DNA of 62,972 nucleotides, the filler included, from Basidiobolus ranarum (Eukaryota), in NCBI GenBank assembly GCA_040143965.1. It is 39 parts of 39 records of this genome, joined end to end, with 100 filler letters (N's around TTAATTAATTAA, not from the genome) between each part and the next. Parts side by side here need not be neighbours in the genome. Positions count along the whole stretch, not along the records: positions 29,183 to 30,699 come from JASJQH010004942.1; 38 more parts are not named here. One strand, written 5' to 3'. The position numbers and the translations under genes were made by a program. The notes beneath the pieces are model-generated. The model had not been told where the DNA came from. It saw only the letters and a list, made by a program, of their open reading frames with translations, and made no database searches. How positions within the stretch are numbered: position 1 is the first letter of the stretch; each line of letters begins with the position of its first letter. Positions 4,302 to 59,750 of this stretch are shown piece after piece.

Positions 4302-4773
4302 TTAGCAAGCGCCAATGTCATTCCATACAGACTGACTGTTACTTCCTGGGGTATCGTTCTGGGTCCACCACTTGGCCTGCCACAAGTGTCCCTTATAGGT
4401 AACCTTCTGGGCACTGGTATAGGCAGTTGCAGAAACCCATTCAGCAACCCCATTACAAATACCGGGGACGGAGGTTGGAGTCACGGAGGCAGTGCTGGTA
4501 GATCCAGTAGCAACGGTGGAAGAAGTCTTACTAGTCACAGAGGAGGTAGCCTGAGCAGTGGAGGTGGTGACAGGGGGAATTGATGGTGAAGGGCATCCAG
4601 ATCCGGTACAGCGAACACCTTGTAGCACATTGAGTAACTCATCGTTGGAGTCATGACTCATGTCCCAGTACATTACACCACGAAGTCCTGCTTGCTTAGT
4701 GTAGTCAACCTTAATCTTGAGTGATTGAGGATCATCGTAGGAGATGAAACGTTTGTCACTGGCACGGAACAAC
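4302..4773 (-). CDS. GH18 chitinase, 3' part with S/T/P linker and C-terminal CBM5/12 (ChtBD3) domain
   Basis: FISYDDPQSLKIKVDY...LRGVMYWDMSHD catalytic-domain end; TS-rich linker; W...AYT...VTYKGHLWQAKWWTQ...PG...W. Confidence 0.93.
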
Positions 4774-4873
4774 NNNNNNNNNNNNNNNNNNNNNNNNNNN
4801 NNNNNNNNNNNNNNNNNTTAATTAATTAANNNNNNNNNNNNNNNNNNNNNNNNNNNNNNNNNNNNNNNNNNNN

Positions 4874-6397
4874 ATTAAAATTAAAATGCTGCTGCAAGAA
4901 AAAGGACTTTGGGACACTGTTGTAGGAGAAGAAAACAATGCAAAACTATCTGAAACCAAAGTTTCACTCCAGATTAAAAAAGAACAAAGTGCCTTTAACA
5001 TAATTTGTCTTAATGTCAAAGACAAATTGCTAATTCAATGTTCAAGAGCTAAAACTGCCAAGAAGGTACGGAAAGCCTTGGAAGACACCTTCCAAACAAG
5101 TTCTGCTGCCAACAAGATGTTTCCAAGAAGACAATTCTTTAACTTAAAGATGAAGTGGGGAGAAGACATTAATTCACAAATTAATAGAGTCACTATGTTA
5201 GTGGATGAAATGGAATGCATTAGAGTACCTACCACTGATCAAGATATCTTAGTTACAGTCCTGAATAGCCTGCCACACAAGTTTCAGACCCTAGTAATGG
5301 CTCTAGAATCAAGAACTGAAAATTTGACCTTAAATTATATATTTGGCAGACTTCTGGATGATGATTTATGCAAATCAGAATCAAACCAAAGGTATGAAGA
5401 AAATGCTTTAATAGGCTCTGGGAAACCTTCCTATAAAGGTCAAAAGCACTTTAAGAAGAAAAGTAACACATTCTGTGATTTCTGTAAAAGAACTGGCCTT
5501 TTAAGTGAGGATTGTTTAAAAGAATTGCAAAAGAAGAAAAACATACTGAATCTGGAAATGTGGTTGCAATAGAAGATCACTTGTTAATATCTGCTCTATC
5601 TATGACTACCAACAAGGATTCTCAGACATAGTATATTGATTCTGGAGCTTCTCAACATTTCACAAATGAAAAACATTGGTTTGTGAAATATGAAGAAATC
5701 CCAATTAGATATATTTTCATGGGAGATGACCACACTTTGGATGCTATTGGAATGGGAACAATTCAGGTCAATTTAACTGGAGCTTCTGAAGGGTAAGAAT
5801 ATACTTTTCAGTATGTACTGCATGTTCCAGATATTGCCAAGAATTTAATATCTGTATGCAAGGCCATCTCAGAAGGGCTAAAATTCAACATTGATAAGTC
5901 AGGATGCACCATCACTACTCAAAATGGGAATTATTTAGCTTTGGGAGAAAAGGATCAAAACTTACACAAACTTACATAAAATCCAAGAGATTTATGTGCA
6001 AATATAAGTTATTCCAATCAAGACACTATTCAATTATGGTATAAGAGATTTGGCCATATTGGATTTGCTTATTTGAGCAAAATGATCAAAAATCACCTAA
6101 TTTCTGGAATTCAAATTAACCCCTCAACCAAAAAGGAAATTTGTGAGAGTTGTATATATGGAAAACAAGCCAGGCAACTGTGCAAGAGCTCTGGTTTAAT
6201 CAAATCTGTCAAAAAATTGGATCTAATTTGTTCAGATTTATGTGGACCTATGAAAAATTTATCTTTAGGCAGAAAAAGATATTTAATCACATTTATTGAT
6301 GATTATACAAGATACACTTGGGTCTACTTTATGGAAAGAAAAGAACAAGCTCGCTCTATCTTTAGAGATTTTAAAACACTTGTGGAGACTGAAACTG
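4874..6397 (+). mobile_element. Copia family A gag-protease-integrase remnant
   Basis: gag ORF 4886-5572 with degenerate CxxC knuckle; YIDSGASQH; CESCIYGK; SDLCGPM...FIDDYTRYTWVY. Confidence 0.95.
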
Positions 6398-8120: not shown

Positions 8121-9643
8121 TGGATTGGTTACACCCTCCTAAATCACAAAACTGTCAGAGAACCATCACAATATTGGTGGCTTGCATTCTGCCAGTGATT
8201 TTGATGGTGTGATAGTGATTTCTTGACAGTATTACAACGGTATTCATACATGTCAAAATATTGATTCACATATTTGGCATGCATTATTAGTTTCTGGCAA
8301 TTGTTGCAAAATATAATTTTTGAATGGTAAATTACTAGGTTTACTGCTGTAGGAATTTGAATTAATATGCATGTCTTTATTTAGTTATTTTAGGCTTTGT
8401 ATTCCAGCCATAATGAGAATCAAAAAATACAATAATCTTGTTGTGTTTAGTCTCTACATATGCACATACTTGAATGATCAGACATAACTCAACAACTTCA
8501 ATATGCTTTACCAGCAAACTAATGGTAGAAAAATTGCTAAACATCTGAAATTTTGAATAGCACTGGCACTTGGCAAATAGATAACTCTTGTTACCGTTCA
8601 CAATGAGAATAAGCTCTTGGATTTTTGCAAATTTCCATAAAGAATTCAACCAATATATCCCCAACTTGCAGTCAACAAGTGTGCTGCCACAAGTAGATGT
8701 GGCATTGCTTGAGTATACTACCCCATGGCAAAGACAATAATACTGCATATCTCCATCTATCTCACCAAGAGGTCCATCTTGCAGTTTCCTAGAGATACCA
8801 TGAGATTGTTGCACAAACAAATTAGTCCAAATTATAGAGGTACTTACTCTGTGTTCTTGGATTGGGCTTTGTTACTGTTATTGTGCTCAAACAATGTAAA
8901 AACTCATGAGCACATTGAAAAGAGCCCTTTGTTGGAAGGTCAATATACTCTGGAGTCTCTTTAACCCATCACACTACATTCATCACCAATTTTGCTGATA
9001 CATAATTAATCAGATTAGCATACAGTAATACTGACAATTTCTCACCGAGCATCATTTCATGGTTGGTGCACTCCATTGGTAACACCCAGAATGTATAGCA
9101 AGGGCCTATAATCTCTAAGCATTGTGAAAGATGCAGCTGGGAATGTACTGAATACCTGCATAGATTCAGTCTATCTTCTTCAAACCGGTAAAAAGTTTTT
9201 CATATCCAATTACAAAATCTTTGCACAGTCACTGTATCTGCCTGAGATCTACCAATGTGAGTTGATGCCATAAGAATATATTAACAATATCCACCAACAA
9301 CTTGCTAACAAAGATAAAATTGATTTGATCCGGATTGGATCCACCCTCCAAATTGGCAAAACTGACAGAGAACTATCACAATATTGGTTGCTTGCATTCT
9401 GCCAGGGATTTTGATGGTGTAATGGTGGTTTCTTGATGGTATTTTGTGGTATTCATATATGTTAAAATATTAGTCCTCAAATTTGGCATGCATCATATAA
9501 TATCAGCAATTTTTGCAAAAAAATAGATTTTGAATGGCAAATGACTGGGTTTACTGCAGTAGGAATTCAATCTAATATGCATTCCTTTATTTAGATATTT
9601 CAGGCTTTGTATTCCAGCCATAATGAGAATCAAAAAATACAAG
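8121..9643 (-). mobile_element. CACTA transposase 3' region and right end, with a second right end inserted at ~9303
   Basis: Homologous to 37266-38340; C-terminal ORF 8377-8820; the right-end sequence restarts at ~9303 (GCTAACAAAGATAAAATTGATTTGATCCGG). Confidence 0.88.
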
Positions 9644-9949: not shown

Positions 9950-11205
9950 CTTTTTATCAACTTTTCTCTTGGACACAACAGGTATCTCTGCCAATCTCTC
10001 CACTGCCTTTCATCCCCAATCTGATGGCCAAACAGAAAGAGTCAATCAAGTTTTGGAACAATATTTGTGATGCACTATCAACTATAATCAGGATAATTGG
10101 ACACAACTCTTGCCTCTTGCTGAATTTGCTTACAACAACTCTTATCATACCTCAACAAAACAAACTCCTTTCTTTGCAAATTATGGATTCCATCCTCATT
10201 TCACAATTCACCCACCATCCAATCTACCTTGCCCTGCTGCCTCAGACCATGCCACTTTCCTTAAGGACATCCATAAACAATTAATATCTGAGTTGGAGCA
10301 TGCTCAATCCCAATACAAGAACTTTGCTGATAAGAAAAGAAAGCCAAGCCCAGATCTCAAGCCAGGAGATTATGTTTGGCTACTCTGGAAAAATATCAAA
10401 ACCACTAGACCTTGTGATAAACTTGATCATAAAAGACTAGGGCCTTTTAAGATTATTAAGCAAATCAATTCAGTAGCCTTCCACCTTGAACTCCCAGCCC
10501 ATTTCAAAGTCCACAATGTATTCCATGTGTCTCTCTTAGAGCCACATGCCAGAAACACCTTCCAGGGCCAATCCATTGACCCACCCCCAGCAATCCAAGT
10601 GAAAGAACATGCTGAATATGAAGTTAGCAAAATTCTAGATTCCAGAATTTATCAATGTAAATTGCAATATTTAGTGGACTGGAAGGGATACTTAACAAAT
10701 GATCAATGATAGAAGCCAGCAACAAATCTTTCCAATTCTAAGGAACTTTGCCAGGAGTTTCATGAAGCCTACCCAGAAAAGCCTGGCCCTATGATGTCTG
10801 GAAGCCATCACTAAAGAAGGGGATACCATCATGATTCTGATCTTGGCATACTGATTCACTGCAAATAAAACTCTTCTATTATTAGATTGTGACATCATAT
10901 CTACTGTGCCATCCCTTCTTGGCAATCTTGTGTTAGTTTATCCAGGTTGCCTTATATGGAAGTCATGTACTTTGGAACTTCCATGAAACCTAACCAATCA
11001 TGTCAACCCACACATAGTGTATTTCCACCAAGACCTTCCATGGAAGGTCACCTGATCATCCTTATAGCATCCCTCTTTGTATTGGTCCTTGTAGTCTCCA
11101 ACACCCAACACTTGAACCTGCCACAGTATATTCCCTATTCAGTATATTATGTTTCACCCTGCAATATCTATATAAGCCCTATGTATTCCTTGATGAGACC
11201 TCACT
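9950..11205 (+). mobile_element. Ty3/gypsy chromovirus integrase C-terminus, chromodomain, PPT and 3' LTR
   Basis: [31 protein letters not shown]...FHVSLLEP (GPY/F module); EYEVSKILDSR...QYLVDWKGY chromodomain; AGAAGGGGA PPT ~10816. Confidence 0.95.
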
Positions 11206-17851: not shown

Positions 17852-19371
17852 GTTTAGTAATTTTTGCCACCATTAGTTTGCTGGTAAAGCATATTGATGT
17901 TGTTGACTTATGTCTAATCGGTCAAATATGTGCATATGTAGAGACTAAACACAATGAGATTCTTGTATTTTTTGATTCTCATTATGTCTGGAATACAAAG
18001 CCTAAAATATCTAAATAAAGGCTTGCATATCAATTCAAATTCCTACAGCAGTAAGCCCAGTATTTTGCCATTTGAAAATTATATTTTTGCAAAAATTGCT
18101 GGATATTGAATAACGCATGCCAAATTTGAGGATCAATATTTTAACATATTTGAATACCATTAAGATACTGTCAAGAAACTGCCATCACATCATCAAAATC
18201 CCTGGCAGAATGCAAGCCAACAATATTGAGATGGTTCTCTGACAGTTTTGCCATTTTTGAGGGTAGATCCAATCCAGATAAAATTGATTTTATTTTTGTT
18301 AGGGGAAAATGTCAAGATGCCATTATATTTTACCAGGACTCCCATCAATATCTGCTCATCCAGGCATTTACTCACATGTCAAGACTGGAAGTATTGGATT
18401 TGTATATATTGCCCTAACAAGAATAGAATCAATTTGATCTGGATTGGGTCCACCCTTCAAAATAGCAAAACTGTCAGAAAACCAGCACAATATTGGTGAC
18501 TTGCATTCTGCCAGGGATTTTGATAGTGTGAGGGTGGTCTCTTGACAGTAGTTTGATGGTATTCATACATGTTAAGATATTGAACCCCAAATTTTGCATG
18601 TGTTATTGAGTATCTGGCAATTTATGCAAAAATCTAATTTTTGAATGGCAAATTACTAGGTTTACTGCTGTAGGAATTTGAATTAATATGCATGCCTTTA
18701 TTTGGATATTTTAGGCTTTGTATTCCAGCCATCATGAGAATCAAAAAGTAAAAGAATCTTGTTGTATTTAGTCTCTACATATGCACATACTTGACTGATT
18801 AGACAGAACTCAACAACATCAATATGCTTTACCAGCAAACTAATGGTGGAGAAATTGCTGAACATCTGAAATTTTGAATAGCGCTGACACTTGGCAAATA
18901 GCTGACTTTTGTTACCATTCACAATGAGAATAAGCTCTTTGATTTTGGCAAATTTGCATAAAGAATTCAGCTAATATATCCCCAACTTGCAGTCAACAAA
19001 TGTCCTGCCACAAGTAGATGTGTCATTGCTAGAATAGATCACCCCATGGCTAAAACAATAATACTGCAGATCTTGATCTATCTCACCAAGAAATCTGTCT
19101 TGAAGCTTTTCTAAAAATACCATCAGATTATTATACAAACAAATTAGTCCAAACTATAGAGGTACTTACTCTGTGTCCATGAATTGGGCTTTGTTGCTGC
19201 TGTTGAGCTCAAACAATGCAAAAACCCATGAGCACATTGAAAAGAGCCCTTTATTGGAAGGTTAATATACTCTGGAGTCTCCTTAACCCATCAAATTACA
19301 TCCATTGCTGATTTTGCTGATACATTTTTAATCAGATTAGCATACAGTAATACTGACAATTTCATATGGAA
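17852..19371. mobile_element. Two CACTA right ends tail-to-tail (ending 18304 and starting 18412) around a 107-bp piece of the same transposase
   Basis: ...TTTTGTTAGGG, then transposase ENVKMPLYFTRTPINI, then CCCTAACAAGAAT...; the two arms are inverted homologues. Confidence 0.9.
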
Positions 19372-29182: not shown

Positions 29183-30699
29183 TTACAAAGGCAGAGTCAA
29201 TAAAACAGGAGGAAGCACCTGAATCAAGAAGTGCAGTTGTTTTTATTGACTTGGAATTTGGTAGCAGGAGTGTAATGGGCAGCTTTAATGATTTATATGA
29301 CTGCAGAGATTGCGATGTATGGTGAAGCAATATTTTTGAAGATGGTTTGCCCAACTGCATGCCCATTGTTGCAGCTGGGTGTCAAAGTTTTCCAACGGTT
29401 GGGAAAAGTCCTCTTGTACCAGCACATTGTTGATCTTAAATCCAGGATTCTTCTTTGGAGAGGTTGTTGCTACATGTCCAGGAGCTTGACAATAGAGGCA
29501 TAGATTCTCTTGTTGGTGCCAATATTTCTGCTCTGGGCTAAGCTTTCTGAAGCAAGTTCCATCAATTCGCTTTGGATCATCAGCTTGAGCTGTATTTTGG
29601 GTTTGATGGAAGGTGGGTCTGAAAGTAGATGATGAATGAGAGAAGAAAGGAACCATGTTTCTTTGTTGTTGTCTTTCAAACAACCAGTTGTCACATTTAA
29701 CTGCCTGGTGGATAGCATCAGTCAAGGTCACTGGATCAGCCATAGTGAGTAAAATATCCTTAATGTTTTCTTGGAGTCCATATTCGAATTGGTAGATCAG
29801 GGCAGATTCTCCCCAATTGAGATCACCGGCAAGAAGGTGGAATTCTGCAGCATAAGTTGATGCAGGTTTCAACCCTTGTTTAAGTGCACGGAGCTTGGTG
29901 GCTGAAGTTATTTCTTTATCTGCATCTCCAAATGTGGCCTCCAGTTCAGCAAGAAAGGTAAGGAAGTTTGAAAGAAGTGGAGATTGACTTTCCATCAAAG
30001 GAGCAAACCAAGATAGAGCTGTACCTGATAATAGTGTTCCCACTAAGCCTACTTTTGCTTGGTGTGAGGGGTAGCAATGAGGATGTAACTGGATGATGAG
30101 CTTAACTTGGTTAATAAAAGCACAATAGTTTTGGTGAGTGCCATCAAACTTGTTTGGTAAGGAGATTTTGGGTTCAGGAGTTAGAATTGCAGTATAGTTG
30201 GGTGGAGCTGGATTCTGTACTTGAGCAATAGAAATACAAAGTTCTTGATTTTCTTGCTGAAGCTGAGTAAGAGCTTGCTTGATATCTTCCATTGTGGGGG
30301 CTGGTGTAGACATAATACTTACTATTTTGGGAGGGGGAAGTTTTTTAAAAACCACAAGTTTCTCTAGGAATGATAATCACAATGCAATGTCCAACTTTCT
30401 TTTGAAGAAATGATTGGGGCCTTGACAAAAGAATATGCTGGTATCAATTTCCTTTGATCTTGATCAAGTGCTAAAGCTTCTTTGATCAAAAATAACTGTA
30501 AACTCAACCAGTAGTGTTTTGACAAGGATGCACTTAGAGCAATTATCCAAAGGTGGAAGGTTCCTTTGCCTTAGCAGGGAAGCTTGGGAAAGATGGGGAA
30601 TAAGAGGGAAGCTGACCTTGGGGGGTTTCAAGGTTGGAGAACAGGGATGGAGAGAAGTCTACAGGCAAGTATAAGTAGTCTGATCAAACTGTCACAATA
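29183..30699 (-). mobile_element. Tf1/sushi-type gypsy LTR end, PBS (30677-30687), leader, gag and protease (-1 frame)
   Basis: PEPKISLPNKFDG...A.SWF...LRALKQG...YAAEF (PEG10/sushi-like gag); LCLYC..PGH knuckle; ALLDSGASSCFID. Confidence 0.95.
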
Positions 30700-30799
30700 N
30701 NNNNNNNNNNNNNNNNNNNNNNNNNNNNNNNNNNNNNNNNNNNTTAATTAATTAANNNNNNNNNNNNNNNNNNNNNNNNNNNNNNNNNNNNNNNNNNNN

Positions 30800-32416: not shown

Positions 32417-33933
32417 CTCTCCCTCAACTAAATAGTCATATAAACTAATCCTAATAAAGGTCTAAATTTCTCAAATTTCTGTCTAGCTAATGGTTTGGTT
32501 AATATATCAGCAATCATGTCTTCTGTAGAACAATAAGTTAAGTCAATAAACTTATTCTCTATAGTCTCTCTAATGAAGTGATGCTTAATATCTATGTGTT
32601 TGCTTCTATGATGAAACACAGGATTTTTAGCTAATTTGATACAACTTCGATTATCTTGAAATATTGTAGTTGGTGAATTTTGAGAATAACCCAAATCTGC
32701 TAAGAGCTTTCTTAACCATATTGCTTCTTTTGTTGCTTCACAGGCAGCCATGTTGTAAGCTTCAGTTGTTGAAAGTGCTATGGTAGGTTGTTTCTTTGAA
32801 TTCCAAGAAATAGCTCCATTACAGCAAAGAAATAGGTATCCTGTTGTAGATCTCCTGTCTGCAGTATCTCTTCCCCAATTTGCATCTGAATATCTCATCA
32901 GATCAAAGTTTGATCCAGAATATATGTATTTTAAGCATAGATCCACAGTACCTTTCAAATATCTGAAAATCCACTTAACTGCTATGATTTGATCAGATCC
33001 ATAATTTTGAAGATATTGGCACATAACTCCCACAGAATATGCAATATCTGGCCATGTTCCAACCATGATATACATCAAACTACCAACCATAGATTGATAA
33101 GGAAATTTCTGGCTTTCATTTGAATCCAAGAATGTCTGATTTGAGCCATTTTTGGTCAAGTTAAGATTTGTCTCCATTGGGGTAGATACTGGATTACATT
33201 CTTCCATTTTAAACTTCTTTAGTATATCTAGGATATACTTAGACTGGTTTAAAGTTATTGTTTTGGTAGTTCTATCTATCTTAATTTGGATTCCAAGATA
33301 GTACATCAGTTCACCAAGATCAGTCATTTTGAATTTGGCAGATAAGCTGGATTTGGTGTTCTCCAAAGTCTTCAAGTCATTGGTTGCTATAATAAGATCA
33401 TCTACATATAAGGCTAATAAAACTGGGTTTGTCTTATCTGGCCTGAAGTAGATACTATAGTCAGCATTACTCTTTTGGAATTTGAGTGTTTCCAAAAAAG
33501 CATCTATCTTGCTATTCCAAGCTCTTGGAGATTGTTTTAAGCCATAGAGTGTTTTCCAGAGTCTGCAAACTTTTTTAGGGTTTTCTGGGTCCACAAATCC
33601 ATCTGGCTGGTCTATATAGATCTCCTCAGCAAGCTCATCACCCAACAAAGCTGTTTTAACATCCATTTGATGTATAACAAACTGATATTTAGCTGAAATT
33701 GCTAAAATCAATCTAATTGAATTAAACTTTGCTACAGGAGCAAAAGTTTCTGTGTAATCTATTCCTGGTGTTTGGGAATAGCCTTTGGCTACTAGTCTAG
33801 CCTTGTACCTTTCTATATTGCCATCAGAGTTGTATTTAACTTTAAACACCCATTGGCAGCCAATTGATTTTCTATCATCAGGTAAGTGGGTTAAGATCCA
33901 AGTTTGATTATCAATCAAAGCCTGGTACTCATC
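32417..33933 (-). mobile_element. Copia family A RT-RNase H, uninterrupted 496-aa frame, followed by PPT
   Basis: YKARLVAKGYSQ, QMDVKTA, LYGLKQSPRAW, LYVDDL, YSDANW, ADILTKPL; GAGGGAGAG after the stop. Confidence 0.97.
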
Positions 33934-34033
33934 NNNNNNNNNNNNNNNNNNNNNNNNNNNNNNNNNNNNNNNNNNNNTTAATTAATTAANNNNNNNNNNN
34001 NNNNNNNNNNNNNNNNNNNNNNNNNNNNNNNNN

Positions 34034-34864: not shown

Positions 34865-35549
34865 TGATTGCTCCAATACCAAAGTACTCAGCAAAATACT
34901 GATGGTATTACCAATATACTTAATGGATATCACTACCAAAATCTGATAAGCCAAGGCTTGTTTCAGAATTCATATGATCATACATTTGCTTTGGCTCTGG
35001 ATGATATCTTACTAAACTAATATAGGATTGGAAAGGCTTGCTGGCCAATAATTTCAATTAGCTTGAATCTTCCTCCATCTGAATAGTATATTGGTCATAA
35101 TATTTTGATACTATCCATCATATCTATCATTGCTTTGATCTCAGCATACTCATCTACTGCAGACAGAACTCTTCTACTACTAGATTATGACATCATATCT
35201 GCTGTGCCATCCTTTCATGTCAATCTTGTGTTAGTTCTTCCAGGGTACCTGATATGGAAGTCATGTGCTTTGGAACATTCCATAAAACCTAACCAATCAT
35301 TTCATTTGACATGTAGTTTATTTCTGCCAAGACCTTCCATGGAAGGTCACCTGATCATCCTTACATCATCTCTCTTTGTATTGGTCCTTGTAGTTCCCAA
35401 CACCCTGATGCTTGAACTTGCCACTGTATGCTCCCTATTCAGTATATTATGTTCCACCCTGCAACAACTATGTAAGCACCATGTATTCCTTGATCAGACC
35501 TCAGTCTGATCAATGCCAGTTATCAATAAAGATTCTTGCCAAAGTATCT
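34865..35549 (+). mobile_element. CACTA transposase fragment (to ~35125) interrupted by a gypsy LTR (~35126-35549)
   Basis: Matches 28020-28275, then switches to an LTR matching 44763-45190. Confidence 0.85.
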
Positions 35550-37265: not shown

Positions 37266-38680
37266 ATGGTATTCATACATGTTAATATATTGATCATCAA
37301 ATTTGGCATGTATTATTCAATATCTGGCAATTTTTGCAAAAATATAATTTTCCAATGGCAAATTACTGGGTTTAATGCTAAAGGAATTCGAATTAATATG
37401 CATGCCTTTATTTAGATATTTTAGGCTTTGTATTCCAGCCATCATGAGAATCAAAAAATACAAGAATCTTATTGTGTTTAGTCTCTACATATGCACATAC
37501 TTGACTGATTAGACATAACTCAACAACATCAATATGCTTTACCAACAAACTAATGGCGGAAAAATTGCTAAACATCTGAAATTTTGAACAGCACTGACAC
37601 TTGGCAAGTAGCTGACTCTTGTTAACATTCATAATGAGACTAAGCTCCTGGAGTTTGGCAAATTTCCACAAAAGATTCAGCCAATATATCCCCAACTTGC
37701 AGTCAACAAATGTCCTACCACAAGTAGATGTGTCATTGCTTGAATAGATTACCCCATGGCCAAAACAATAATACCATGTATCTTGATCTATCTCACCAAG
37801 AAGTGTGTCTTGCAGCTTTCCAAAAAATACCATCAGATTATCACACAAGCAAATTAGTCTGATTATAGAGGTGCTTACTCTGTGTTCATGGATTTTGGCT
37901 TTGTTGCTGTTATTGTGCTCAAACAATGCCAAAACCCATGAGCACATCAAAAATAGCCCTTTGTTGGCAGGTAAATATACTCTGGAGTCTCCTTAACCCA
38001 TTGCATTACATCCATCACTGATTTAGCTGATACATTGTTAATCAGATTACATTTTGGTAATACTAACAATTTCACATTGTGCATCATTTCACCACAGGTA
38101 TGCTCCATTGGGAACTCCCAGAATTTATAGCAAGAGCCTATAATCTCTAAGCATTGTGTAAGATGCAGCAGGGAATGTATTGAATACCAACATAGATTCA
38201 GTTTATCTTCTTTGAACCTGTAATAAAGTTCTTCATATCCAATTACAAAATCTTTGCACAATTGCTTTATCTGCCTGAGATCTGCCAATGTGAGTTGATG
38301 CCATAAGAATATATTAACAATATTGACAAACAACTCTCAATGTTGCTAATACTTCTCAGGAAGAAATCTTGTCAAAATTCCACTTGAATATATACAAATC
38401 CAATACTTCCAGTCTTTACATTGAATAAATGCTTAGATGAGTGGATATTGATGGGAGTCCTGGTAAAATATGATGGTATCTTGATGTTTTCAAGTATTTT
38501 CCCAATTGATTCAAACTTTGATCCTATCTTGAATGGCTGATTCATATTGAATTCTCCACTACATAGCTGAGTAAGCAGTATCAGAATGTTGTTGAATAGT
38601 AAGTGCATAGTGCCTAATGGGAAGCTCTGGCTCCAGCTGATCCCCTGTAGCAATATAATCTTAGGCTTACAGAGATACCT
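37266..38680 (-). mobile_element. CACTA transposase C-terminal half (DUF4218-like)
   Basis: DFVIGYEELYYR...SIHSLLHL...IGSCYKFWEFPME; downstream ORF 37408-37950 is conserved to the same stop in four copies. Confidence 0.92.
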
Positions 38681-42110: not shown

Positions 42111-43185
42111 ATTTGGTAAGGAGATTTTGGGTTCAGGAGTTGGATTTGCAGTATAGTTGGGTGGAGCTGGATTCTGTACTTGAGCAATAGAAGTACAAAG
42201 TTCTTGATTTTCTTGCTGAAGTTGAGTAAGAGCTTGTGCAATATCTTCCATTGTGGGGGCTGGTGTAGACATAATACCTACTATGTTGTGAGGGGGAAGT
42301 TTTAAAACTACAGGTTTCACTTGGATTGATAATCACACTGCAATGTCCAACTTTCTGTTGTAGAAATGATTGGCACCTTGATGAAAGAATATGCTGGTAT
42401 CAATGTCCTTTGATCTTGATCAAGTACTAAAGCTTCTTTGATCAGAAACAACTGTAAACACAACCAGTAGTGTCTTGACAAGGATGCACTTAGAGCAATT
42501 ACCCATAGGTGGAAGGCACCTTTGCCTTAGCAGGGTAGCTTGGGAAAGATGGGGAATAAGAGGGAAGCCAACCTTGGGGGGCTTCAAGGTTGGAGAACAG
42601 GGATGGAGAGAAGTCTACAGGCAAGTATAAGTGGTCTGATCAAACTGTCACAGTAAGGAACTGGACAAGGACTGAAAACAATGACAAGAGGCTAGAAGGC
42701 AGGAGAGTACTTGGGTGTAGACCACAAGACAAGACAAGACAAGACAAGACTGGATAAGGTAGATACTTTGGCACGAATCTTTATTGATTACTGGCATTGA
42801 TCAGACTGAGGTCTTATCAAGGAATACATGGGGCTTATATAGATATTGTAAGGTGAAACATAATATACTGAATAGGGAATATACTGTGGCAAGTTCAAGA
42901 GTTGGGGTGTTGGGGACTACAAGAACCAATACAAAGAGGGATGATGTAAGGATGATCAGGTGACCTTCCATGGAAGGTCTTGGCATAAATACACTATGTG
43001 TGAGATGACATGATTGGCTAGGTATCATGGAATGTTCCAAAAAACATGACTTCCATCAAAGGTAATCTGGATAAACTAACACAAGGTTGCCAAGAAGGGA
43101 TAGCACAGCAGATATGATGTCATATTCTAATAATAGAAGAGTTCTATATTCAGTGGATCAGCATGACAAGATCAGAATCATGACA
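42111..43185 (-). mobile_element. Gypsy complete 5' LTR (43185-42646, 540 bp), PBS (42634-42643), leader and gag start
   Basis: TGTCATG...TGTGACA termini; TATA, AATAAA; gag MSTPAPTMEDI as in 29285-30355. Confidence 0.95.
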
Positions 43186-43624: not shown

Positions 43625-43724
43625 NNNNNNNNNNNNNNNNNNNNNNNNNNNNNNNNNNNNNNNNNNNNTTAATTAATTAANNNNNNNNNNNNNNNNNNNN
43701 NNNNNNNNNNNNNNNNNNNNNNNN

Positions 43725-44449
43725 CATATCAGAAGTATTCTTGACACATTTCCAGTCAGAATTAACAGGCCCAAAAGCAACCAAAAGCTATTCTATTCTG
43801 GCAAGTACAAAGCCCACTGTGTAAAGTTCCAGGCTCTGCCAGATTTGGAAGGAAATATCATTTTGTTTAGTGGGCCACATCCAGGGAGACACCATGACAA
43901 AAGGCTTTTGGTTGAGAGGCATGCACCATTTGTAAGATATGAGAAGACTATAGCTGATTTGGCACATGTTGGGGAAGAATGCAGAAGGCTAGGATGTGTC
44001 ACTGCTAACAAGAGGCCCAGAGGAGGGATATTCACAGAGAGGCAAAAGCTTTATAATGACATTTTTTCCAACTTTAGAGCAAGAGTACAACATAGCTTTG
44101 GTTTCCTAAAGAGATATAGCAATGTAACAGGAAAGTATATAGGAAAATCATTTTGTGGGCCTCAATCAAGGTTAGGCAAAGTAGTCCAAATCTTGATTAA
44201 TTCTCAATACATTCATACTCAAAGATATCCATTGAGAGCTCTATAATTAAGACACTATGAATTAAGCTTTCATCATCTTTTGAATGTGCAATAATTACTC
44301 AAAGTACTTTTCTTAAATATACCACATAAGTAAAATAAACTGTTTCCAAAATGGTCAATAACATTGTGCCGGATAGTGCCCAATCATGCCAACTTGTGCT
44401 GGCACACTTTTTAGCTGGCCTGATCTGGCTCAATAAAATGGAACAAGTC
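43725..44449 (+). mobile_element. DDE_Tnp_4 (IS5/ISL2/PIF-Harbinger-type) transposase C-terminal half and right TIR
   Basis: LDTFPVRINRPK..QKLFYSGKYKAHCVKFQ, GPHPGRHHD, IADLAHVG, QKLYNDIFSNFRARVQHSFGFLKRY; TIR ATGGAACAAGTC then TAA. Confidence 0.92.
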
Positions 44450-45238
44450 TAATGTATTCCATGTGTCTCTCATAGAGCCACATGCCAGAAACACCTTCCA
44501 GAGCCAATCCATTGACCCACCCTAAGCAATCCAAGTTGAACAGAACCCTGAATATGTAGTTAGCAAAATTCCAGATTCTTGAATTTATCAACATAAATTG
44601 AAATATTTAGTGGAGTGGAAGGGATACCCAAAAATTGCTCAATGATGAGAGCTAGCAAGAAAGCATTCCAATTCTAAGGAACTTTGCCAGGAGTTTTATG
44701 AAGTGCGTCCAGAAAAACCTGGCCCTATGATGTCTGGAAGTCATCACCAAAGGAGGGGATACTGTCATGATTCTGATCTTGGCATACTCAGCCACTGCAA
44801 GTAGAGCTCTTCTAATATTAGATAATAACATCATACTTATTGTGCCATCCTTTCTTGGCAATCTTGTGTTAGTTCATCCAGGTTACCTTACATAGAAATC
44901 ATGTTCTTTGCAACGTTCCATGAAACTCAACCAATCATTTCATCCAACACATAGTGTATTTCTGCCCAGACCTTCCATAGAAAGTCACCTGATCATCCTT
45001 ACATCATCCCTCCTTGTATTGAGCCTTGTAGTCCCCAAAACCCTGACACTTGAACTTGCCACAGTATATTCCCTATTCAGTATATTTTGTTTCACCATGC
45101 AATATCTATATAAGCCCCATGTATTCTTTGATTAGACCTCAGTCTGATCAATGCCAGTTATCAATAAAGATTCTTGCCAAAGTATCTTCCTTGCCCAGTC
45201 TTGTCTTGCCTTGTCTTGTCTTGTGGTCTACACCCAAG
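44450..45238 (+). mobile_element. Gypsy chromodomain region, PPT and 3' LTR (from 44763)
   Basis: NVFHVSL.EP, YLVEWKGYP; AAAGGAGGGGA-TAC-TGTCATG. Confidence 0.93.
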
Positions 45239-46619: not shown

Positions 46620-46851
46620 ACAGCTCTGAGATATACTGTAATTTGGGTCTGTCTCTTGCCTCTTGGGTCTTTGTGAAAGGGAATCAAGCCTCTAGAAATG
46701 TCTAAGGACTGATAAATGACAATACAATGTCCAACTTTCTGTTCAATAATATGCTGGCACCTGACAAAAGAATATACTGGCTTCAGCGTCCTTTGAGAAT
46801 GATCAGATAAAAAGGGTATATCCAATCAAAAACAACTGTAAACTCCGCCAG
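46620..46851 (-). mobile_element. Leader region of a second gypsy-like family
   Basis: Matches 53545-53745 and is more distantly similar to the leader 30360-30530. Confidence 0.6.
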
Positions 46852-50866: not shown

Positions 50867-50925
50867 TGAAGAGAAGGCCCATTAATCATCATATAGAATT
50901 TACATTTCTTCCTTAACTTCAATCA

Positions 50926-51690
50926 ATGGTGGCCATCAAGCTCATTACCTCCATCTCACTCTTGGCTGCTACTTCAATGGCTTGGGTTTGGCCTTTGCCT
51001 GCGAAGATGGATGTTGGCCATAACATCATTCGCTTGAGCAGAAATGAACTCGACATCTCCATCAAAACTCCTGCTGGTGCTGATATCCTTGAGAGAGCCG
51101 TTCACCGCTACAAGAAGTTGATCTTCACCAAGGGTGAGTTCAGTGCACTCCTTAGCCCGGTTGAGAAGACCGTGTTCCCCATTCCTACCACCTCCGTCCC
51201 TGTTCATCCACTTGCACCTAAGGGTAAGTACCCTACATTGACTGGACTCAGTATTCAGGTCAGTGGCCACAACACCAAACTCAATCTTGACACCGATGAG
51301 TCGTACACTATTGATGTTCCTGCACGTGGTGGCAAGGCTACCATTAAGGCCAAGAGTGTGTACGGAGCTCTCCGTGGACTCGAATCATTCTCCCAATTGG
51401 TCAAGTGGACTGCTGAGGCCAATCAGTACCGCATTCCATTCGCTCCAGTCTCTATCTCTGACAAGCCAGTCTTCGTCCATCGTGGTGTGATGATTGATTC
51501 ATCCCGCAACTTCCTCAAGATCGAAGACATCAAGCGTACTCTCGATGCCATGTCATACAACAAGCTTAATGTTCTCCATTGGCACATCATTGATCAACAC
51601 AGTTTCCCTCTCAAGACCAAGACCTATCCTCAACTCGCTGAAAAGGGAGCTTACAGCAAGGAATGGGTCTACACTGAGAAAGATGTTCGT
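50926..51690 (+). CDS. Secreted GH20 beta-N-acetylhexosaminidase, 5' part
   Basis: Signal peptide then VWPLP; DESY; YGALRGLESFSQL; D.P.F.HRGVMIDSSRNF; LDAMSYNKLNVLHWHIID..SFP. Confidence 0.96.
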
Positions 51691-51790
51691 NNNNNNNNNN
51701 NNNNNNNNNNNNNNNNNNNNNNNNNNNNNNNNNNTTAATTAATTAANNNNNNNNNNNNNNNNNNNNNNNNNNNNNNNNNNNNNNNNNNNN

Positions 51791-53544: not shown

Positions 53545-54508
53545 GTCTTGCATCTTGGGTCTTTGTGAAAGGTATTCAAGCCTCAAGAAATGTCTAAGGA
53601 ATGATAGATCACAATGCAATGTCCAGCTTTCTGTTGAATAATGTGCTGGTGCCTGGCAAAAGAATATACTGGCTTCAATGTCCTTTGAGAATTATTGGAT
53701 AAAAAAGCATATCAAATGAAAAACAACTGTGAACTCTGCCAGCAGGGTTTTGAACAAGGATACACTAGTAGTGCTTTATCCAAGGATAGACAAAGTTTGT
53801 TGCTTGTGCAAACAAAGCTAGGGAAAAATATAAAGTATCAGTAATATAGCACCTACCCATCAGTACTTCCTTTGAGCCAGTCAAGGTCTTTCTATTAACA
53901 CAGTAGCCTCTAACTGTCTCTAGTAGTCTCTCTTGAGCTTCCTCTTCAATGGTCTTGTAAGCAGTGATGAAAATTCAGGGTGATCAAAAGTAGTAATTGT
54001 TAATTGATAAGCAGGATGATTTTTGTTGAAAAGATATGGCATCAAATTATACTTTTCTGAAGGTAGAAATAATGAATAATGAGAATTTCCAGAAAGTTGC
54101 AGAGAATTCTATTGGTGGGGCTCTGGGGATATGATGTCATCATTAAACATAAGATAAGTAATCCATGGATTGTTCTGGAAAATTGTGTAATAATTCAGAA
54201 AGTCATGGAATATTCCAGCAAAATCAAGTTTTGATTAGTCAAAATTCAATCAATCAGCAAATATTGCAAGAATTTTGTGGAATGTTCCAGAAGATTGTAG
54301 AAATTTTCAGAAAATAAGAGGGCTAATATGGGTTAGTACTGATAAATCTCAAATGATAGGGGATAGTACCAATAGTGTGATATGATTGGTTAGAAGACAT
54401 GGGTAAGTCAAATATGGATAATAAATTGAAATTGTGGGATAGGAATGATATGAGCTAGGAATGGAAATAAGTCAATCTGCCAGTGGGTAGCAATGATACC
54501 CCACTACA
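53545..54508 (-). mobile_element. Second gypsy-like family: complete LTR (54508-53956, 553 bp) and leader
   Basis: TGTAGTGGGG...GCTTACA termini; second LTR copy at 56033-56526; leader related to the first gypsy family. Confidence 0.75.
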
Positions 54509-54570
54509 ATGATCAATCCAAAACGGATTAAAATTGCAATGGTTTTCTTAAAATAACAATTCTCAAATTT

Positions 54571-54781
54571 ATGTTTCACCCTGCAGTATCTATATAAGCC
54601 CCATATATTCCTTGATCAGACCTCAGTCTGATCAACCCCAGTTTTCAATAAAGATTCTTGCCAAAGTATCTTCCCTGTCCAGTCTTGTCATGTCTTGTCT
54701 TGTGGTCTACACCCAAGAACTCTCCTGCCTTCCAGCCTCTTGTTGTTTTTTCCAATCCTTGTCCAGTTCCTTATTGTGACA
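54571..54781 (+). mobile_element. Gypsy family 1 LTR 3' half
   Basis: TATATAAG 54591, hairpin 54612-54635, AATAAA 54647, ends TGTGACA. Confidence 0.9.
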
Positions 54782-58238: not shown

Positions 58239-59367
58239 ATGATCATGCATTTGCATTGGCTCTGGATGGTTTCTCACTAAACAAATATACCGTTGGAAAG
58301 GCTTGCTGGCCAATAATTTTAATCAACTTAAATCTTCCTCCTTCTGAACAGTATAAGAGTCATAATATTTTGATACTATCCATCATATCTGGACCTAAAT
58401 CACCAGTGCTTATTGATAGCTTCTTGGAGCCTTTGATTGTGGAATTTGAATGGTCATCTAATGGGGTTCAGATGGTGAATATTGTACCCTAACAAAAAAA
58501 AATCAATTTGATCTGAATCAAATCCACACTTCTAAAGTGCAAAACCATCAGAGAACCATCAATGTGCTCATGGGTTTTTACATTGTTTGAGCACAATAAC
58601 AGCAACAAAGCCCAATTCATGGACACAGAGTAAGTACCTCTATAATTGAACTAATTTGCTTGTGTGATAATCTGATGGTATTTTTAGGAAAGCTGCAAGA
58701 CAGACTTCTTGGTGAGATAGATGTAGATATGCAGTATTATTGTTTTAGCCATGGGTAATCTATTCAAGCAATGACACATCAACTTGTGGCAGGACATTTG
58801 TTGACTGCAAGTTGAGGATATATTAGCTGAATTCTTTGTGGAAATTTGCCAAAATCAAGAGCTTATTCTCATTGTGAACAGTAACAAGAGGCAGCTATTT
58901 GCCAAGTGTCAGTGCTGTTCAAAATATCAGATGTTTAGCAATTTTTCCACTGTTAGTTTGCTGGTAAAGCATATTGATGTTGTTGAGTTATGTCTAATCA
59001 GTCAAGTATGTCCATATGTAGAGACTAAACACAACAAGATTCTTGTATTTTTTGATTCTCATTATGGCTGGAATGCAAAGCCTAAAATATTTAAATAAAG
59101 GCATGCATATTAATTTGAATTCCTACAGCAGTAAACCCAGTAATTTGCCATTCAAAAATTGCCAGATATTGAATAACACATGCCAAATTTGAGGATCAAT
59201 ATTTTAACATGTATGAAGACCATCAAAATACCATCAAGAAACCACCATCACACAATCAAAATCCCTGGCAGAATGCAAGCCACCAATGTTGTGATGGTTC
59301 TCTGATGGTTTTGCTCTTTTGGAGGGTGGATCCAATCCGGATCAAATCAATTTTATTTTTGTTAGGG
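58239..59367 (+). mobile_element. CACTA transposase fragment (58239-58486) followed by an 881-bp unit bounded by two right ends (58487-59367)
   Basis: CCCTAACAAAAA at 58487, inversion junction at ~58560, ...TTTTGTTAGGG at 59367. Confidence 0.87.
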
Positions 59368-59750
59368 TCAATGACCCAAAATTGCTTGGGCATGTGAAAG
59401 TAGAAGTCTTGGAGGAAAACTGGCAAACCCAAAAGACTCTGAACATCAGAGCAGCCATCCCTTGCTCTGATGATGGGTGGTTTAAAAATTTGGAAACTGT
59501 GTGGAATCTTGCCCAAGATCACCTCAATATGAGCCAATTGTGGATAAACCAAAACCCGGATGTTACTCTGAAGGTTCCTAACTTATTTCATATGGCTTAT
59601 CCTGGGCTTTTCCAAGCAAATGACTGCTGGCCTAGTAAATGTTAAAGTATTTGGGAGCCTGTTGGAAGTGGTTTGGAGAATTAGAGGAATTGGTGGTTTT
59701 CACTTATTGATTAATTGAGTAGAAAGTTGACATTTATAGTTTTGTCAAGA
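59368..59750. mobile_element. Unclassified repeat (59368-59639) interrupted by a copia A LTR end (reverse, 59640-59750)
   Basis: Homologous to 40496-40745; TGTTAAAGTATTTGGGAGCC is the reverse of the LTR end. Confidence 0.8.

Follow-up and report, generated by a model that had tools for sequence, protein, structure and literature searches.

How does a long terminal repeat (LTR) retrotransposon of Basidiobolus ranarum prime reverse transcription when no TGG follows its LTR? We examined this question in a 62,972-nucleotide stretch of DNA (the window), made up of 39 contigs of about 1.5 kb and 38 N spacers around a TTAATTAATTAA linker (for example, 30700-30799). Because the contigs are joined by these spacers, neighbours across a spacer are not genomic neighbours. 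On the minus strand, positions 30699-30677 read TATTGTGACA-GT-TTGATCAGACT: the LTR ends in TGTGACA, GT follows, and then comes the 11-mer TTGATCAGACT, the putative primer binding site (PBS; TGTGACA to PBS, 30696-30677). Direct reading found that the first 5 nt past the LTR hold no TGG. TTGATCAGACT is the exact complement of an LTR 11-mer, AGTCTGATCAA, which lies 34 nt below the LTR TATA box, its A being the 27th base past TATATAAG; AATAAA begins 11 nt past its end. Copies of AGTCTGATCAA are found at 35503, 45141 and 54625 on the plus strand and at 42807-42797 on the minus strand. Direct reading also showed that the primer:PBS duplex is exactly 11 bp long, with no extension possible on either side. 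A second PBS junction, at 42643-42633 on the minus strand, is complementary at 10 of 11 positions, its last base being C. Re-reading bore out what the initial annotation had reported: the coordinates of the PBS, of its partial copy and of the LTR complements, the exact 11-nt complement 27 nt after TATATAAG and ahead of AATAAA, and the lack of a TGG tRNA site after the LTR end.

Table 1. Positions of the element's features in the window
Feature	Position	Strand	Basis or remarks
Terminal 10 nt of 5' LTR, ending TGTGACA	30690..30699	-	Direct reading; remainder lost at contig edge
Spacer GT, 2 nt, LTR to PBS	30688..30689	-	Direct reading
PBS TTGATCAGACT, without TGG	30677..30687	-	Genome junction pattern, direct reading
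Pyrimidine-rich 5' leader (about 360 nt)	30314..30676	-	
gag ORF (Retrotrans_gag, Ty3_capsid, DUF4939)	29285..30313	-	
Complete 5' LTR, about 540 bp, TGTCA...TGACA	42646..43185	-	
TATA box TATATAAG	42834..42841	-	
U3 inverted arm, PBS-like 10-mer	42811..42820	-	One mismatch in this copy
Predicted self-primer AGTCTGATCAA	42797..42807	-	Predicted +1 = A at 42807, CTC/A initiator-like context
AATAAA polyadenylation signal	42780..42785	-	
PBS of the 43185-42646 LTR element, 10/11	42633..42643	-	gag ATG at 42272
LTR fragment, solo or 3'	54569..54781	+	No PBS after it
Features within 54569..54781	TATA 54591-54598; perfect U3 arm 54612-54621; primer 54625-54635; AATAAA 54647-54652	+	
Integrase/chromodomain tail, PPT, 3' LTR	44451..45238	+	PPT 44749-44761; 3' LTR from 44763; primer copy 45141-45151
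LTR fragment	35136..35549	+	Arm 35490-35499; primer copy 35503-35513
Integrase SH3, broken chromodomain, PPT, 3' LTR	10071..11203	+	PPT 10813-10825; 3' LTR ending at predicted +1 (11203)

The copy at 30677-30699 holds just 10 terminal LTR nucleotides, and its own predicted start lies outside the window. The sole copy within the window that links an LTR to a PBS is 43185-42633, paired at 10 of 11 positions; otherwise, the linkage rests on genomic copies outside the window. Genome-wide, we found 96 PBS junctions with at most one mismatch and none with the reversed control. Among 50 genomic copies with both sites, many of which had been retrieved through the PBS pattern, so that PBS conservation is possibly overstated, 20 were paired at 11 of 11 positions and 15 at 10 of 11; in the remaining copies, 9 positions were paired in eight, 8 in four and 6 in one, and two copies were out of register. 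Primer and PBS mutations never coincided within the family (48 of the 50 copies, those read in register). This is what post-insertion decay would produce, and the family therefore offers no internal covariation. The offset of 2 nt between LTR and PBS is also the most frequent one among relatives (19 of 33).

The element represents a largely decayed family of Ty3/gypsy chromoviruses, an assignment based on its domain order, its chromodomain and the contigs that link pol to gag and the LTR. A natural open frame of 942 residues on a separate contig (P0001) has the order RVT_1, RT_RNaseH, Integrase_H2C2, rve and SH3_Tf2-1. Pol of this type shares a contig with gag, LTR and PBS in two cases (L160 and L152) and with gag and PR in a third (L159). 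An unbroken natural copy (L008) carries the chromodomain (Chromo, E=1.3e-15) directly ahead of the PPT and LTR; the window copy is broken and falls under the cut-off (E=4.7e-05). A PPT precedes seven 3' LTRs. In most copies, gag and pol are in different frames, and in the window a protease motif follows gag in another frame near 29231, running off the contig.

In a quick tree of RT-RNase H sequences (46 rows), the element stood beside metagenomic elements (SH-aLRT 97), its nearest relatives at 70-88% identity, within a larger 20-row branch that includes vertebrate and Ustilago proteins (SH-aLRT 95). It was split from Tanacetum, Closterium and Haematococcus proteins (SH-aLRT 100) in this tree, which was built without named Tf1, Tcn1 or sushi-ichi. 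The Pol is of the chromovirus type proposed earlier, and in the quick tree fungal and vertebrate proteins share its branch and those of plants and algae fall outside it. One metagenomic Pol (P0077) was far nearer than the other relatives, with 88% identity over the RT-RNase H region. A second Ty3/gypsy family in the genome (L157, G000:C3085) has an 834-residue open frame with 52% RT identity; in that tree it clusters with proteins from plants and algae. A GH20 hexosaminidase encoded in the window shares 82-83% identity with proteins of Basidiobolus meristosporus, and named matches outside the genus reach at most 53%; this identity supports an early-diverging fungal host.

The window holds other sequences as well. 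Positions 4302-4817 and 50917-51738 carry the end of a GH18 chitinase that bears a CBM5/12 module, and the GH20 hexosaminidase. Pieces of copia integrase, gag and RT and of a DDE_Tnp_4 transposase occur at 866-1462, 4826-5572, 32428-33981 and 43677-44246, and copia RT sequence lies directly next to the LTR at 43185. A repeat family represented at 17852-18863, with copies at 8121-9302, 37266-38335 and 58559-59372, forms at 17852-18863 an imperfect palindrome of about 1 kb that is 83% self-inverse. Two stretches (46705-46851 and 53597-53783) are about 75% alike to the element leader, with other sequence after them, and are perhaps a non-autonomous or sister family.

The same geometry recurs with other letters in sister families. 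We retrieved 81 related loci and applied a strict automated test to 37 of them, the other 44 being without a gag hit or upstream DNA. The test required at least 9 bp of pairing beginning 0-2 nt past ACA, with a pyrimidine-purine step at the primer start and a TATA-like box upstream of it; 17 of the 37 relatives passed, including three copies of one family, versus none in either the reversed or the complemented control. Without the pyrimidine-purine and TATA filters, 25 of the 37 passed, with 5 and 3 in the controls, and 12 of the 37 failed even this loose 9-nt test. Without the TATA/initiator filter in 51 loci, 33 passed versus 14 and 8 in the controls; we preferred the strict test because this background is high. 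From 11 two-LTR loci we set aside four (L190, L202, L215 and L241) in which tandem or low-complexity repeats had misplaced the LTR end. Of the seven with clean LTR bounds, six have an 8-13-nt complement beginning 0-2 nt past the LTR, and the seventh (L197) showed, by eye, 11 paired nucleotides including one G-T.

A hand-picked table of 25 families plus the Basidiobolus family, in whose choice the TATA box was partly used, holds 26 different primers in 26 families, and duplex length ranges from 8 to 13 nt among relatives. Pairing ends at a pyrimidine-purine step in all 26 families (four need a shift of 1-2 nt), and a TATA-like box lies 31-40 nt above the primer start in 19 of the 26. Only 8 of 650 cross-family primer/PBS pairs reach 6 of 9 nt. 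As regards the compensatory changes that the initial annotation had suggested seeking in sister families, the geometry is kept while the letters change, and one family on the sister branch in the RT tree (L200, AGTCTGGTCAA/TTGACCAGACT) differs from the Basidiobolus family by a single compensatory pair. In seven families (L182, L187, L193, L194, L197, L200 and L204), whose primers differ, the primer is followed directly by a C(A/G)CCAGT-like motif and the PBS is preceded by ACA-(G/A)T. This shared flanking motif of the closest families is a candidate cleavage-site context.

We estimate a probability of roughly 0.87 that, in the manner of Tf1, the element uses its own RNA as the primer for reverse transcription and needs no tRNA. 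Self-priming had been proposed in the initial annotation and is supported by the tRNA screen described below, the sister-family geometry and the chromovirus-type Pol. In the predicted mechanism, transcription by RNA polymerase II would begin at the A of AGUCUGAUCAA, 34 nt downstream of the TATA box; the TATA distance and the initiator context both fit a transcript start at the A of AGTCTGATCAA. The first 11 nt would then fold onto the PBS, which starts 2 nt beyond the LTR and some 140-165 nt from +1, and R may pair with the U5 end in another short duplex that stacks across a 5x3 internal loop. By analogy with Tf1, the element's RNase H, a domain present in P0001, would cut after base 11, and RT would extend the new 3' end. 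By this predicted priming signature, the element is Tf1/sushi-like.

Folding in silico of RNA starting at +1 gave a primer:PBS pairing probability of 0.92-1.0 in all 13 copies, and the duplex of the self-primer with the PBS has an energy of -15.6 kcal/mol. As a whole, the 228-nt leader was no more stable than shuffled sequences (z=-0.49). For the second duplex, between the U5 end and R downstream of the primer, permutation tests gave p=0.04, 0.12 and 0.01; its register of three pairs is kept in six of seven close families, the third pair being U-A, C-G or U-G, and its probability exceeded 0.7 in 5 of 13 own copies. These values lend the stacked second duplex weak support. A third duplex, between the leader 3' of the PBS and the LTR, was not found when we considered contiguous stems beginning at most 4 nt from the PBS (3.9 nt for own versus 4.0 nt for cross-family pairs, 22 families, p=0.65), and for this reason we do not claim the full pretzel structure known from Tf1. 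By eye, outside this test, we noted a 6-bp stem from nucleotide 5 and an 8-bp stem further down.

The element might also be self-primed in a manner unlike Tf1, with a start a few bases off or above an inverted arm in U3, and with a primer released internally or without the three-duplex structure. The third duplex that was not found, the range of duplex lengths among relatives and a 10-bp U3/R hairpin that ends exactly at base 11 all speak for such a variant. Against it, transcripts that include the U3 arm lose primer:PBS pairing in silico, the probability falling from 0.92-1.0 to 0.0-0.32, and pairing stops at a pyrimidine-purine step in every family, with the TATA-like box 31-40 nt upstream in most. 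We consider this variant improbable.

Still less probable, in our view, is that priming here falls to a small host RNA, be it a tRNA, a tRNA half or another kind, and that the LTR match is secondary. The screen of the PBS against host tRNAs found no match: among 79 distinct genes with 34 anticodons, a set without Tyr and several minor anticodons, none matched over more than 6 Watson-Crick nt starting 0-5 nt past the LTR. This gap in the set leaves the host-primer reading some room, as do two matches that appear once wobbles are allowed, an internal stretch of tRNA-Glu (-13.4 kcal/mol) and 9 nt, the best such match, in the D arm of tRNA-Ile(AAT). However, no free 3' end is known for the D-arm matches, pairing of the PBS with tRNA 3' ends reached -7.8 kcal/mol at best, and without TGG a mature CCA end is unable to pair. 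Universal rules for the anticodon loop prescribe Y32, U33 and a purine at 37, and under these rules the 11-mer fits no half-tRNA register. A genome-wide wobble-tolerant pattern placed upstream of the T loop, which is blind to D-arm sites and to intron-containing genes, gave 13 matches versus 9 in the control, none of them in tRNA genes. We rejected 5S rRNA as a primer, its single match, in a partial gene, giving just -8.5 kcal/mol. Furthermore, PBS letters vary by family in step with the element's own LTR and not with host RNA. The tRNA genes lie in dense repeated clusters (L073-L099 and L301-L320), with no tRNA-Tyr among the 79 distinct genes. Elsewhere, at L254:995-1003, a self-complementary PBS has TGG as its first letters, which might let it pass for a tRNA site.

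That the match arose by chance or as a by-product, the PBS being just a duplicated piece of U3, is very improbable. In its favour stand the 10-nt direct repeat shared by PBS and U3 arm and the palindromic TGATCA. Against it, an 11-nt complement anywhere in the LTR, without requiring the position TATA+34, turned up in 47 LTRs when 20000 were shuffled by dinucleotides; T stands at PBS position 11 in 94 among the 100 copies listed, fitting the A at +1 and not the C after the U3 arm; many relatives have a PBS/primer pair without an arm; and the strict test in relatives (17/37 vs 0/37) largely refutes it.

Self-priming remains the preferred reading, and a U3 arm that might mask the primer is its more unusual part. 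The LTR reads TTGATCAGAC-CTCA-GTCTGATCAA, a 10-bp inverted repeat across the predicted start whose hairpin ends exactly at base 11, and so carries a 10-nt copy of the PBS directly upstream of the primer 11-mer. The arm reaches at least 7 bp in 4 of 26 families, a length found in 2 of 650 cross pairs (p=5e-5, and 8.5e-4 once the Basidiobolus family is left out), and most of the 26 families are without a long arm. Arm and primer have decayed about equally fast (0.104 and 0.099). It is possible, although on balance doubtful, that this inverted copy upstream of +1 coevolves with the primer and would fold a primer from the 3' LTR or from an upstream start into a hairpin; in this model, the 3' copy would be kept from competing for the PBS, and only correctly started RNAs would prime. 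No description of such an arm appears in the available portions of the self-priming literature among the matches listed (10.1101/2022.12.06.519325, PMC7175516, PMC3601003 and PMC5341516).

The 4-nt hairpin loop occurs in 29 exact inverted copies versus at least 100 exact plain copies, and the inversion removes the A at +1 in about a fifth of LTRs. Because inverted-loop copies occur with both downstream haplotypes, the data suggest that the loop has been inverted repeatedly. As to whether the flipped copies form one subfamily, the flipped loop required 20 changes versus 19.4 in shuffles on a tree that is nearly a star and poorly resolved. We also considered inheritance from primer to PBS, by which a flipped LTR with G at +1 would yield C at PBS position 11, and rejected it as unsupported by the PBS copies: C stands at this position in 2 among the 100 copies listed, and T is retained there in all four flipped 5' LTRs that have a PBS. 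The 3' LTR at 10827-11203 stops at the predicted +1, the base with which the hairpin loop ends, and unrelated DNA lies beyond.

Self-priming itself is already known: it is proven in Tf1 (PMC7175516) and predicted in the literature for the Tf1/sushi group, as the initial annotation had stated, and the Basidiobolus element adds another host. According to PMC7175516, the 11-nt PBS of Tf1 adjoins the 5' LTR and is complementary to the first bases of R. Tf1 priming is described as requiring a three-duplex "pretzel" (10.1101/2022.12.06.519325). Self-priming has also been proposed for Tj1 (PMC4600332), for Tosmo and Tcry elements (10.1101/2022.12.06.519325) and for Cryptococcus Tcn1 (PMC7175516). In the excerpts available, the Basidiobolus element shares with Tf1/Tf2 of Schizosaccharomyces pombe, and with Tj1, Tosmo1-3 and Tcry1, the Ty3/gypsy chromovirus type, an 11-nt PBS by the 5' LTR and the lack of a tRNA site. 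By contrast, it has other primer letters, another host and, mostly, gag and pol in different frames; the third pretzel duplex was not found in it, and Tf1 is the only one of them with a proven start site and cleavage.

Among plant elements, self-priming is predicted for 12% of those surveyed, including most of the Tcn1 clade, from a 10-bp LTR complement located 0-5 nt past the LTR (PMC6317226, as excerpted). On that scale of at least 10 nt at 0-5 nt, the Basidiobolus element pairs at 11 of 11 positions at offset 2. Tcn1-like chromodomain elements of the Tf1/sushi lineage are known from a chytrid, itself an early-diverging fungus (BatDenTy3-1), and the same paper reports having found no evidence of priming for SM-Tcn1 (PMC2864245). 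With the Tcn1 clade (Cryptococcus Tcn1, BatDenTy3-1, and moss and club-moss elements), as far as the excerpts describe it, the Basidiobolus element shares a chromodomain and a positive LTR-complement test, a likeness in features. Self-priming is also predicted for vertebrate sushi-type (V-clade) chromoviruses, as cited in the available portions of PMC6317226 and 10.1101/2022.12.06.519325. Frog and fish proteins, which we infer to be sushi-type, have 51-62% RT-RH identity to the element and share its 20-row branch (SH-aLRT 95), although they form a branch of their own; the element's nearest relatives are metagenomic. Literature searches naming Basidiobolus showed, among the matches listed, no Basidiobolus element and no paper that links Basidiobolus to retrotransposon priming.

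Taken together, these results add a Basidiobolus-like (zoopagomycotan) fungus to the hosts in which the signature of tRNA-independent priming is seen. The 26 primer/PBS pairs, which differ from family to family and include one with a lone compensatory change, support self-priming across a broad chromovirus branch of fungal, vertebrate and metagenomic members. They fill in an expected pattern and overturn nothing, and they yield one sharp prediction, the exact nucleotide at which transcription would start. The U3 arm, if its proposed role is true, would be an undescribed layer of control on self-priming, and it could matter more if the gating of priming proves real.
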